In this document: one piece after another, positions 1,621 to 50,335 of the stretch
Layout of the letters: each line of letters begins with the position of its first letter
How positions within the stretch are numbered: position 1 is the first letter of the stretch
Assembly: GCA_951406725.2 (NCBI GenBank)
Contig: OX597816.1
Location: forward strand, 98,394,001 to 98,458,000
Direction: 5' to 3'
DNA length: 64,000 nucleotides
Origin: Octopus vulgaris
Taxonomy: Eukaryota
The notes under the pieces: generated by a model
Database searches by the model: none
Told to the model about the DNA's origin: nothing
The model's input: only the letters and a program-made list of their open reading frames with translations
Translations under genes and position numbers: made by a program

Positions 1621-1655
<35 letters not shown>

Positions 1656-1835
1656 AAAGGGCTTAGTAAAATAAATTACTTCGCCGCATACTGAACTCAT
1701 TAGAAATAGCAGCTAAAAAACTTTTTAAAGCTATTTCTAATACTTAAAGAAAATCTCTCTCATATATAGCGTTTGCTTAATTTAACTCACAAAAGTTTGG
1801 GGTAAGGACATTAAAAATCAAATGCTAAGGTTATT

Positions 1836-1887
1836 TGAGTACGTACGTTTCAAGATTAGTCAAAACAACATTTCTCTCTTCAGCTCA
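1836..1887 (-). ncRNA. Type I hammerhead ribozyme copy 1
   Basis: Minus strand: UGAG-CUGAAGA-GAGA...UCUU-GAAA-C-GUAC-GUA/CUCA. Confidence 0.82.
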
Positions 1888-2378
1888 TAAATTCTTGGTT
1901 TGGATTTGGAAACACTGAAAGTAAGAACATACCCTTTCGAAGATCCGCTCTTAACTAACAGTGCCAGCAAACCCAAATAAGCAAGTGAATCATTTCTGTT
2001 CTCCCTTTCCACCAGCGTGGGTTAAAATCATCAAACGCTATGCTTATTTCGGTAAAATCCGAAGCAATAATTAGAGGGAGATTAATTATAATTTCAACAA
2101 TTGAGGGTAAAATTAATTAATTATTAATCAATTTCACCAAGTGTTCAGTATGCAAAGGGACCATTTAAGGCGAATTCAAATTATTACATTATATAAAAGG
2201 GCTTAGTAAAATAAATTACTTCGCCGCATACTGAACTCATTAGAAATAGCAGCTAAAAAAACTTTTTTTAAAGCTATTTCTAATACTTAAAGAAAATCTC
2301 TCTCATATATAGCGTTTCCTTAATTTAACTCACAAAAGTTTGGGGTAAGGACATTAAAAATCAAATGCTAAGGTTATT

Positions 2379-2430
2379 TGAGTACGTACGTTTCAAGATT
2401 AGTCAAAACAACATTTCTCTCTTCAGCTCA
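2379..2430 (-). ncRNA. Type I hammerhead ribozyme copy 2
   Basis: Same motif, 543 nt from copy 1. Confidence 0.82.
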
Positions 2431-2434
2431 TAAA

Positions 2435-2486
2435 TGAGCTGAAGAGAGAAATGTTGTTTTGACTAATCTTGAAACGTACGTACTCA
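2435..2486 (+). ncRNA. Type I hammerhead ribozyme copy 3
   Basis: TGAG CTGAAGA GAGA...TCTT GAAA C GTAC GTA CTCA; predicted cut after 2482. Confidence 0.82.
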
Positions 2487-2978
2487 AATAACCTTAGCAT
2501 TTGATTTTTAATGTCCTTACCCCCAAACTTTTGTGAGTTAAATTAAGCAAACGCTATATATGAGAGAGATTTTCTTTAAGTATTAGAAATAGCTTTAAAA
2601 AAGTTTTTTAGCTGCTATTTCTAATGAGTTCAGTATGCGGCGAAGTAATTTATTTTACTAAGCCCTTTTATATAATGTAATAATTTGAATTCGCCTTAAA
2701 TGGTCCCTTTGCATACTGAACACTTGGTGAAATTGATTAATAATTAATTAATTTTACCCTCAATTGTTGAAATTATAATTAATCTCCCTCTAATTATTGC
2801 TTCGGATTTTACCGAAATAAGCATAGCGTTTGATGATTTTAACCCACGCTGGTGGAAAGGGGAGAACAGAAATGATTCACTTGCTTATTTGGGTTTGCTG
2901 GCACTGTTAGTTAAGAGCGGATCTTCGAAAGGGTATGTTCTTACTTTCAGTGTTTCCAAATCCAAACCAAGGAATTTA

Positions 2979-3030
2979 TGAGCTGAAGAGAGAAATGCTG
3001 TTTTGACTAATCTTGAAACGTACGTACTCA
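2979..3030 (+). ncRNA. Type I hammerhead ribozyme copy 4
   Basis: Same motif; predicted cut after 3026, 544 nt from copy 3. Confidence 0.82.
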
Positions 3031-3311
3031 AATAACCTTAGCATTTGATTTTTAATGTCCTTACCCCCAAACTTTTGTGAGTTAAATTAAGCAAACGCTA
3101 TATATGAGAGAGATTTTCTTTAAGTATTAGAAATAGCTTTAAAAAAGTTTTTTAGCTGCTATTTCTAATGAGTTCAGTATGCGGCGAAGTAATTTATTTT
3201 ACTAAGCCCTTTTATATAATGTAATAATTTGAATTCGCCTTAAATGGTCCCTTTGCATACTGAACACTTGGTGAAATTGATTAATAATTAATTAATTTTA
3301 CCCTCAATTGT

Positions 3312-3366
<55 letters not shown>

Positions 3367-35406: not shown

Positions 35407-35567
35407 CAGGTGTGGACGTGTGGTAAGAAACTTGCTTCTCAACCTAGGCGTTCCGGATTCAGTTCCACTGCGTGGTACCTTTGACATGTGTCTTCTGCTA
35501 TAGACTCGGGCCAACCAAAGCCTTGTTGGTGGCTTTGGGAGGCAGAAACTGAAAGAAGCCTGTCGTG

Positions 35568-35603
<36 letters not shown>

Positions 35604-39647: not shown

Positions 39648-40380
39648 GAGGTTGGGCTGGTAGAATCGTTAGCACATCAGGCAAAATATTTAGCCACATT
39701 TCATCCGTCTTTACACTCTGAGTTCAAATATCGCCTAGATCGACTTTGCCTTTCATTATTTCAGATTCGATAAAATAAGTGCCAGTTGAACACTAGAGTC
39801 AACTGAACCACCTTCGCCGAAATCGCTGCACTTGTGCCAATGACTAAGCCCAGCTGACAGAAACATTAGCACGCCGAACGAGGTGCTCAGTGGCAATTCT
39901 TCCAGCTTTACGTTATGAGTTCATATCCCGATTTTGTCTATATTTATTTAAGGGCCCTATAAAATATGTACTAGTTGAGCACTAAACTCGATGTTATCGA
40001 TTGACCTGTCCACATTGTTCTGGGTTCAGTCCCACTGCGTGGCACCTTAGACAAGTGTCTTCTACTATAGCCTCGGACCGACCAAAGCCTTGTGAGTGGA
40101 TTTGGTAGACAGAAACTAAAAGAAGCCCATATATGTATGTGTGTGTGTGTATTTGCGTGAGTGTGTGTTTTTTTCCCCCAACATCGCTTGACAACCGATG
40201 CTGGTGTGTTTATGTCCCCGTAACTTAGCGGTTCGGCAAAAGATACAGATAGAATAAGTACTAGACTTACAAATAATAAGTCCCGGGATCGATTTGCTCG
40301 ACTAAATGCGGTGCTCCAGCGTGGACACAGTCAAATGACTGAAACAAGTAAAAGGTTAAAAGAGTAAAAGAGTAAAAAAG
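39648..40380 (+). mobile_element. SINE cluster: two family C copies then family B
   Basis: GCTGGTAGAATCGTTAGCAC (39657), GCTGACAGAAACATTAGCAC (39853), family B body 40010-40380 ending AAAAGAGTAAAAGAG. Confidence 0.82.
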
Positions 40381-43231: not shown

Positions 43232-43545
43232 AGGATTCATTCTTTGGAAGCCTAGTACATATTCTATCTATCCCTTTGGCCGAACCGGTAAGTTACAGAG
43301 ACGTAAACACACCAACAACGGTTGTGAATCGATGGTGGGGGACAAACCCAGACCCACAAACACACAAATATATACATATATATATACCACGGTCTTCTTT
43401 CAGTTTCTGCCTATCAAATCGACTCACAAGGATTTGTTCGGCTTGCGGCTATAGCAGAAAGCATTTGTCCAAGATGCCACGCAGTAGTACTGAACCCACA
43501 ACCATGTGATTGGAAAGTAAGCATTTTACCACACACTCACGCATG
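43232..43545 (-). mobile_element. SINE family B
   Basis: Reverse of GTGGTAAAATGCTTACTTTCCAATCAC...GGGTTCAGTACTACTGCGTGGCATCTTGGACAA...GAAACTGAAAGAAG. Confidence 0.8.
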
Positions 43546-47735: not shown

Positions 47736-47762
47736 ACGTATATATATATATATATATATATG

Positions 47763-48884
47763 TCAGGTTGAGTAAAAATTAAGCAACATTTTTGAAACAT
47801 GAAATTCATTACAGCATATTTCAACAATGCGTACCATTACAATAGTTACAAGATTGATTATTCATGTAACATGAAAATCTGGAGTTCTGAAGCTGATAAA
47901 CTCTTTGAACGCACTTTCAGCATCGGTTTGATTTTTTAACTCCTTCTCTCGCAGGAAACAATCGAGGTGATTGAAAATGTAATAGCTGGTAGAAGAAAGG
48001 TTTGAGGAATATGCTTTTCCATTAACCAGTCTGGGATGGAGGAGTTGGAAATTTTCGTTCATTTTGCCAATTTCATGGCAATATGATTTTCAGTGATGGC
48101 TTTTCCGTTTTTTTAAGAGGTTATAGTGAATGGGTCCAGCAGCACACCACCAAACAGTTATTATAAGCTTCTTCTTGAAGAGCTCGGGTTTAGGGAAGGT
48201 TTTCGGTGCTTCATTTTGGTCCAACCACTGCGGAGAAAGTTTTTTTTTATTATTGTACAGAATCTACTTTTCATCGCAAGTTACAATACGTGGAGAAATG
48301 GATCGGTCTGTTTACGGAGAAGAAGCGTCGAACAAATTCATATCTACGCATTTTCTGATTTTCAGTCGAATCTTGTGGTACCTATTTGTCGAGCTGTTTT
48401 GATTTTGCGATCGCATGCAAATGATTGCAGGCGGACTTCTGGCTCACTTGAACTTCTTTTGACAGTTCTCTGGTGGTTTTATGTGGATCTTTCTATACGA
48501 CTGTCTTTAATTGACCGTCATCGATGACAGATGGACGTCTACTAATTTACGATTTTCGAGGCTCAGGTTTACACAGCGAAATCGTTTAAACCATATCTGA
48601 GTTGACCACTCACTGGTCATATCTTCACCAAACGTTTCGTTGATATCGCAAGCGGTTTCAGCTGCTTTACGTCCTTTATTGAAGTGAATATCAAAATTGT
48701 TCGAATATTGCACTTTGACAGATCTATTTCAAATGACTGTAACGGCAGTGAAAATAAATTAATTTTAATTTACTGATGCATTTCGCCAAGTCTAAGTCTC
48801 TATTATCATACAATTTCAAAAAATTTTCAAAAATAATTCACAACTCTGCGAAAGTCCAGCGTTGATTACTTTTTACTCAACCTG

Positions 48885-48885
<1 letters not shown>
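47763..48885 (-). mobile_element. Mariner transposon relic with ~25-bp TIRs, inserted in (TA)n
   Basis: TIRs TCAGGTTGAGTAAAAA.TAA.CAAC at both ends; HTH-like AAETACDINETFGE..WFKRFR; YSSNLSSTSYYIFNHLDCFL resembles YSPDLSPTDYHFF. Confidence 0.92.
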
Positions 48886-48938
<53 letters not shown>

Positions 48939-49181
48939 AATATAAAATGAGGGTGAGAAGTTAGATATTAATTTATTTAACATCGATTTCACACCAGTGG
49001 TCTTGCATATAAAAAAACTGAAGGTTCAGTAAAATTGTATTATATATATATTAGTGGGAAACCACTATGTGGACACCCTTATGCTAGAGATAGGTCCACT
49101 AAGAAATGTTCTCAACAAAAATTTTGCAAAACAACCGAAACGTAACCGAGCAAGACAGAAGAAAAGACAAATATGGATTAT

Positions 49182-49253
49182 TCGCATACATGTTTCACTA
49201 TTACCATATTACGTAATTTTACTTACATAAATGTCCGTAGATCATCGGTGCGA
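49182..49253 (-). ncRNA. Type I hammerhead, variant core
   Basis: UCGCA-CCGAUGA-UCUA...UAGU-GAAA-C-AU-GUA/UGCGA. Confidence 0.65.
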
Positions 49254-49929
49254 CCGTCCAGATGAATATCATTTGCAGGACTGCATACTAGGACGTCCGC
49301 ACAAAGTCAGATTTGTAATCAGTTCTACCCATAACACTCGTGGTTATTATTTCAAATGTGCTCGTTTTGGCGCGCTAAATTACCGGAAAGACTGATGCTT
49401 CAGATAACACTTTACTGCAGTGGCTTTTGCCGGTTAGAGAACGTATTAATTTAAATTTAAAATGAGGGTGAGAAATTAGATATTAATTTAATTAACATTG
49501 ATTTCACGCCAGTGGTCTAGCATATAAAAAACTGAAGGTTCAGTAAAATTGTATTATATAAAATTGTATTATATTTCTTAGTGGTAAGACCATTGCGGAT
49601 CTATTTTTTGCGTAAGGGTGTCCACATAGTGATTTCCCTCTAATATGTATATAATAAATTTTTACTGAACAATTCATTTTTTTATATGCTAGACCACTGG
49701 TGTGAAATCAATGTTAATTAAATTAATATCTAATTTCTCACCCTCATTTTAAATTTAAATTTAAATTAATACGTTCTCTAACCGTCATCAGTCTTTCTGG
49801 TAATTTAGCGCGCCAAAACGAGGACATTTGAAATAATAACCACGAGTTTTATGGGTAGAACTGTTTACAGATCTGACTTTGTGCGGACGTCCTAGTATAC
49901 AGTCCTGCAAATTATATTCACCTGGATGG

Positions 49930-50001
49930 TCACACCTATGATCTACGGATATTTATGTAAGTAAAATTACGTAATATGGTAATAGTGAAACATGTATGTG
50001 A
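49930..50001 (+). ncRNA. Type I hammerhead, degenerate core
   Basis: UCACA-CCUAUGA-UCUA...UAGU-GAAA-C-AU-GUA/UGUGA. Confidence 0.55.
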
Positions 50002-50199
50002 ATAATCCATATTTTTATTGTCTTTTCATTTGTCTTGCTCGATTACGTTTTTGTTGTTTTGCTAAATTTTTCGTGAGAACATATCTTAGTGGTAAGACAA
50101 TAGTGGATCTATTTCTAGCATAAGGGTGTCCACATAGTGGTTTCCTTCTAATATATATATATATATATGCATATAAGGTGTTTCTTCAAGTTCTTTCTC

Positions 50200-50335
50200 T
50201 CAAATCAACTCAGAAGGCTTTGGTCGGTCCGAGGCTATAGCAGATGACACTTGTTCAAGGAGGCAAGCAGGGAAGTTAAATCCGGAACCATATAGTTGGG
50301 AAGCGAGCATATATACCACGCAGCACAGCACGCCG
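50200..50335 (-). mobile_element. SINE family B 5' part
   Basis: Reverse of GTGGTATATATGCTCGCTTCCCAAC...TATAGCCTCGGACCGACCAAAGCC. Confidence 0.75.

Follow-up and report, generated by a model that had tools for sequence, protein, structure and literature searches.

A two-armed inverted element lies at 48933-50161 of the window, the whole stretch of 64,000 nucleotides of Octopus vulgaris DNA analysed here. Each arm holds a hammerhead-like motif, and stem I of the two motifs differs by a pair of changes that preserves its pairing. How was such an element written into the genome, and does the paired difference record selection on an RNA stem? A sequence-only reading of the locus had taken it for an older multimer whose arms were permuted by reverse transcription around a circle, and had left two explanations for the stem, covariation or a pair of CpG-type transitions.

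Results

Architecture of the locus

The interval 48933-50161 represents a single insertion, hosted in (TA)n, with two arms arranged head-to-head; it belongs to a dispersed, non-coding family whose unit is 542 nt long. Its features, of which the two tracts and the junction were read directly from the sequence, are the following.

48885..48932, no strand: (TA)n tract, left portion of the target
48933..49560, minus strand: left arm, about 1.2 units, with its 3' end (site B, phase 117) at 48933 and its truncated 5' end (phase 4) at 49560
49182..49253, minus strand: hammerhead-like motif (type I) of the family type, predicted cleavage after GTA at 49187
49399..49430, minus strand: 32-33-bp segment, normal in the family and absent from the right arm
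49545..49574, plus strand: junction of both truncated 5' ends with a 15-bp tandem duplication, the mapped arms lying 12 nt apart
49573..50161, plus strand: right arm, about 1.15 units, with its truncated 5' end (phase 471) at 49573 and its 3' end (site A, phase 9) at about 50152-50161 in (TA)n
49930..50001, plus strand: decayed hammerhead-like motif with TCACA/TGTGA as stem I and a broken core (CCTATGA)
50148..50169, no strand: (TA)n tract, right portion of the target

Several points of the initial description hold. The arms are inverted (49159-49397 and 49786-50024 are 93% complementary, 48933-49097 and 49597-49761 87%), each is longer than one unit (direct repeats within the arms are spaced by 515 and 508 nt, and the two arms occupy 656 and 623 aligned positions on the 542-nt unit), and they begin at different phases, with truncated 5' ends at 4 on the left and 471 on the right. 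Both outer ends are 3' ends entering (TA)n, the truncated 5' ends meet centrally, and the end pairing is B on the left and A on the right. Any target-site duplication is masked and none can be read, because (TA)n flanks both ends of the insertion.

Other points had to be revised. The unit, first estimated at about 510 nt, is 542 nt in the family, deletions having shortened both arms. What had been described as an insertion of about 33 bp in the left arm has the reverse polarity: 31 of the 33 family segments that span the place retain the 32-33-bp segment, which is missing from the right arm of the locus, partly missing in L014 and otherwise always there, and therefore the right arm carries a deletion. 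As for its age, the insertion can be called older in a relative sense only, its arms being 93.3% identical (447 of 479 ungapped columns) as against 97-99% for the element at 1645-3321. The latter is a younger inverted multimer of an unrelated unit, likewise in (TA)n; homology between it and the arms of 48933-50161 was sought and none was found. In itself, the locus is a dead, ordinary, decayed copy of a known kind of element.

Two further repeats adjoin the target. An element with terminal inverted repeats of about 25 bp between TA runs (47761-48884) abuts the left (TA)n tract, and its minus-strand reading frames are broken; we take them to resemble mariner transposase. On the other side, a common dispersed repeat at 50150-50330, probably a SINE, abuts the right (TA)n and is about 70-80% like 43367-43535, 35431-35590 and 40035-40138. 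Repeats of this type also adjoin several other insertions of the 542-nt family.

A dispersed non-coding family

Searching the 2.8-Gb assembly with the unit gave 81 matches among the best 40 of 3352 candidates, which is a lower bound, and an exact motif pattern found at least 61 sites in the genome. A pattern with the canonical core found at least 22 sites, 15 in the 542-nt family; the other seven are unrelated to it and were rejected as members. From 82 fetched loci, seven without a family match and 19 repeat fetches or near-identical duplicates were dropped, leaving 56 insertions. These had been picked by unit similarity or motif, and the distributions of length and of 5' ends are therefore biased in favour of long, motif-bearing copies.

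The unit is 34% GC, and the longest stop-to-stop frame within the element is 65 aa, which leaves it no protein-coding capacity. Neither frames nor tblastn revealed an ORF for reverse transcriptase (RT) and GIY-YIG in the element, and tblastn matches of Penelope-like element (PLE) proteins at family loci fall outside the unit. Arms diverge from the family majority by 2.4-6.7%. Two complete motifs, 539-541 nt apart, were verified in two of the 56 insertions (L075 and L003), and the locus has one motif per arm. A shared non-unit extension was sought at the family ends, where only neighbouring common repeats appeared. A U1/U2-type internal promoter was considered and rejected, since a matrix built from nine snRNA upstream regions did not set the unit apart from shuffled sequence, its score being reached by 69 and 65 of 200 shuffles. 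Related sequence is present in DNA runs labelled as three organisms; family pieces also occur in contigs of four presumed-RNA runs, contigs that are uninformative on transcription, strand and circles. One locus is of another form: L039:445-1586 (G000:C6, about 127.09 Mb) holds 8.5 near-identical copies of a 134-bp family piece containing just the hammerhead-like motif.

The hammerhead-like motif and a canonical sister family

Read on the strand with the fixed 3' ends, the motif opens with stem I and the CCGAUGA core, followed by a stem II domain of 45 nt, then GAAA, helix III (palindromic, ACAUGU) and stem I'. In the left arm of the locus, stem I is TCGCA/TGCGA, the core CCGATGA (U4C) and helix III ACATGT. 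In the modelled structure stems I and II and helix III pair and the core is single-stranded, a predicted type I hammerhead fold in each unit; this minimal, dimer-type architecture is that described for PLE hammerheads (PMC4209133). On the hammerhead strand the folding of natural monomers is better than that of shuffled sequence (25 shuffles each), with z scores of -5.1 and -4.0; on the opposite strand the scores are -1.5 and -3.5. An Rfam scan of the window at the gathering threshold returned no match.

The sequence-only reading had expected a CUGANGA core in the family consensus. The hammerhead fold is indeed conserved, but the literal core is not the consensus of the 31 arms: 25 have CCGAUGA (U4C) and three have CUGANGA, at a CpG site, where it is probably due to decay. 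The right arm does show CUGAUGA on its opposite strand, but this was rejected: the deletion junction creates it, and the family lacks it.

A sister family (L124-L136) has a unit of 545-547 nt that is 64% identical to the 542-nt unit, with copies 94-98% alike. It carries a canonical CUGAUGA hammerhead at the same position and ends at homologous A and B sites. Stem I is compensatory between the two (AUGCA:UGCAU in the sister, UCGCA:UGCGA in the 542-nt family), and so is stem II (GCC:GGC and CUA:UAG, respectively). It is in this comparison, of two lineages only, that the stems appear to covary in earnest.

Two fixed 3' ends, one on each arm

The 56 insertions provide 81 outer 3' ends, of which 35 lie at site A (phase about 9) and 25 at site B (phase 110-128), with four just past A, five at phase 515-525 and 12 elsewhere. 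Sixty ends out of 81 thus fall on two sites about 110 nt apart, and 21 fall off them, whereas the 5' ends (n = 93) are scattered over the unit. Plotting the phases, a check that the sequence-only reading had itself put forward, therefore speaks against the free permutation it assumed: the 3' ends are fixed, and scatter is found at the 5' ends.

The two sites are distributed between arms in a regular way. Among 25 two-armed insertions, 11 are A/B, two near-A/B, one A/near-A and none B/B, the remainder including an end of the "other" class. In the strict cases A and B were mixed in 11 out of 11 (binomial p = 0.001). BLAST end mapping missed some short arms, and L012 and L015, which appear to be A/B, are outside this count. 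A narrow literature search, confined to the main texts of open papers, found no description of such a two-arm rule for retrozymes. Of the 81 stretches of 20 nt that lie beyond the 3' ends, 37 are TA-rich, versus 67 of 1120 in the background; TA-rich 5' flanks also occur (10 of 31). No 5' end out of 93 piles up at the predicted cleavage site in this motif-selected sample, a result not counted as evidence because the sample was selected for intact motifs.

Thirteen of the 21 simple junctions show an overlap of 1-6 nt between the arms, and the two 5' ends lie within 15 nt of each other in phase at only one of the 21, which fits two independent cDNAs. The inverted second arm could instead come from fold-back self-priming on one template, as in the model proposed for rotifer Penelope elements (PMC3846280), and the near-palindromic junctions of L012 and L063 would suit this. 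Such an origin is unlikely, given that the phases of the two 5' ends differ by more than 15 nt at the other 20 simple junctions, including that of the present locus (4 versus 471), and that both outer ends are fixed 3' sites.

Could the layout have arisen at the DNA level, a satellite-like repeat having been duplicated locally in inverted form, or be an assembly artefact? Among the listed pieces of three DNA runs no contig spans the whole locus, which would fit such an explanation. However, 25 dispersed insertions share the layout, with its A/B rule, the arms of the locus are 7% diverged and have separate deletions, and ends A and B enter (TA)n in public DNA-run contigs too (loose ends 49041, 49452 and 49653). 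We give this explanation hardly any credence. The family combines 5' truncation, fixed 3' ends, an inverted truncated partner and a tail on one arm, and in these respects matches a PLE-mobilised non-autonomous element.

The stem I difference is best read as decay

Stem I is, as first described, TCGCA:TGCGA at 49249-49253/49182-49186 (minus strand) and TCACA:TGTGA at 49930-49934/49997-50001 (plus strand). Free rolling-circle reverse transcription from arbitrary starts would produce permuted arms, and the paired change would then be selected covariation. Arms longer than one unit with different starting phases suit this scheme, as does the enrichment of the double change A321/T388 in the family (8/6/4/45, Fisher p = 0.0003). 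The enrichment, however, is due to a subfamily of seven insertions linked to C345 and T166. When these are set aside the counts become 1/6/3/45 (p = 0.43), the one being the right arm of the locus, which lacks C345. Elsewhere in the family, the double change thus has the pattern of a single inherited event.

The arms of the locus share six deviations from the family majority, two of them found in no other insertion; over the family, 17.6% of deviations are shared between passes or arms of one insertion, versus 4.5% between insertions. The six shared deviations therefore point to one template lineage, with the stem I difference arising later. Both altered bases are in CpG dinucleotides, and in the family transitions affect 7.3% of CpG versus 3.4% of other C/G sites, a decay about twice as fast. 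Covariation between the arms is rejected in view of the shared private variants and the subfamily-driven excess, and ordinary decay after insertion at this locus is the most likely source of the change: two CpG-type transitions, the second explanation offered at the outset, is the best reading here. With the two fixed 3' sites, these sharing and subfamily counts largely refute free rolling-circle copying with selected covariation, which we consider very improbable. What survives of copying around a circle is a template of more than one unit, circle or tandem, with 18 segments exceeding one unit and the longest reaching 887 nt; free circular permutation is not supported.

Candidate Penelope-like partners in the genome

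ORFs with RT and GIY-YIG are abundant in the genome (148 scored matches), and one PLE, L116 (1815-4980), is likewise arranged head-to-head within (TA)n and carries a CCGAAGA core. No homology to the unit was found at the termini of 40 PLE loci, taken from the top GIY-YIG matches (6136 candidates).

PLE termini carry variant hammerhead cores of their own. In L116 and L117 the core is CCGAAGA; L090, L092, L093, L096, L101 and L107 have a U3-A8 core, and their GAAACAUGUA helix III is that of the 542-nt family. PLE ORF fragments lie in the fetched 1.5-kb flanks of five of the 56 insertions (L003, L006, L025, L033 and L055), with microsatellites in between, an uncontrolled count; three of the five fragments are of one L110-like PLE family.

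Discussion

Writing of the insertion

We think it probable that the locus is a decayed insertion of a 542-nt hammerhead-bearing family, written in trans by a Penelope-like RT/GIY-YIG endonuclease primed on both cut strands. The enzyme would nick both strands within the TA tract, and the strands would prime at different internal positions of the RNA, one at site A and its counterpart at site B, which lies about 110 nt further downstream. Because the template contained more than one unit, the cDNAs would each continue past one, and the two truncated cDNAs would be joined head-to-head, often via 1-6 nt of microhomology. Each arm would have decayed by 4-5% once inserted, and we assign to this later phase the deletion and the broken core of the right arm as well as both CpG transitions in stem I.

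That the two target strands were both primed, one at A and the other at B, is inferred from the pattern of ends and from the precedent of Poseidon in the anole, whose enzyme, a predicted dimer, is reported to cleave and extend both strands, two internal RNA start sites defining the tail (PMC11167929). PLE insertions have been described with an inverted 5'-truncated copy, a tail at one end and a (TA)n bias (PMC8557442, PMC3846280), and retrozymes have been proposed to be non-autonomous PLE derivatives (10.64898/2026.07.22.740005). Against a Penelope-type reading stand the lack of homology between the unit and the 40 sampled PLE loci, the A-B distance of about 110 nt, longer than the published tail of 30-40 nt, the 21 of 81 3' ends found off A and B, and the TA-rich sequence at 10 of 31 5' flanks.

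Circle or tandem template

A circular monomer released by hammerhead cleavage has, in our estimate, about an even chance of being the template, and an uncut tandem transcript is a serious possibility at somewhat below even. Related animal elements are reported to produce circles (PMC7229834). The U4C change weighs against a circle, as it lowers cleavage in vitro, and it is tolerated naturally in a viroid (PMC3088659). That viroid evidently went on multiplying with the core substitution seen here, but the putative hammerhead of the 542-nt family is minimal, of type I, and sits in an animal genomic repeat.

PLE mobilisation may instead have relied throughout on linear tandem transcripts left uncut and drawn from a few source loci, with no part for circles and with a U4C hammerhead that is weak or vestigial. 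We regard this as possible while leaning against it. In the anole, PLE cleavage is reported as dispensable and uncut RNA as the main template (PMC11167929), no cleavage was reported in 8 of 9 Xenopus dimers (10.64898/2026.07.22.740005), and CCGAUGA is the core of most arms of the 542-nt family. Moreover, L005:1300-2042 has an arm whose two passes have a private variant in common and yet differ at both overlapping subfamily-diagnostic sites (345 and 388), one of which is only 3 nt from the truncated end. A single circle does not explain this discordance without extra mutations, which argues for an uncut tandem transcript. On the other hand, arrays reaching two full units are absent from the 56 insertions, although 18 segments exceed one unit; natural monomers fold well; private variants are common to the passes of one arm (four in an arm of L003); and the stems are conserved, with compensation relative to the sister family.

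A more specific proposal, to which we give not quite an even chance, is that one small RNA circle is copied by a PLE dimer from two fixed internal starts, one per target strand, which would make an asymmetric A/B palindrome of every complete insertion, and that the family reached hundreds of copies with a weakened U4C hammerhead, its sister keeping the canonical core. If this is true, the two families would be a natural pair for testing whether the spread of retrozymes needs cleavage and circles.

Relation to known elements

The 542-nt family appears to work like a PLE pLTR insertion and, judged from its sequence, would be classed best with the metazoan non-LTR retrozymes. Like those described by Cervera and de la Pena (2020, PMC7229834) and by Li, Clavereau and Pollet (2026, 10.64898/2026.07.22.740005), it is non-coding and low in GC (34%), has a single type I hammerhead-like motif whose helix III is short and palindromic, and exists as dispersed monomers and partial tandems in a genome with PLEs. 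Its unit is within the 51-972-bp range of Li et al. (10.64898/2026.07.22.740005) and longer than the coral, mussel and axolotl examples given in these sources. Unlike the elements portrayed there, its copies are mostly of 1-1.6 units rather than long arrays. It also differs by its fixed A/B ends, its U4C core and its two-armed inverted insertions, the word "inverted" occurring 0 times in the main text of PMC7229834.

With endonuclease-positive PLEs and their pLTR insertions, as they are presented in PMC8557442, PMC3846280 and PMC11167929, the family shares 5' truncation, partial tandems and an adjacent inverted truncated copy, as well as AT-rich or (TA)n targets, a hammerhead upstream of the 3' ends and an additional 3' segment that only one arm carries. 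It differs from them in being a 542-nt family without an ORF, without homology to the sampled pLTRs, and with an extra segment of about 110 nt instead of 30-40 nt.

The 542-nt family would thus be a further, older example of animal retrozymes with a Penelope insertion footprint. Its countable rule, A on one arm and B on the other, supports the proposed partnership of retrozymes with PLEs, and the U4C family, its canonical sister and the discordant passes of L005 together bear on whether the template of such elements is a circle or an uncut tandem RNA.
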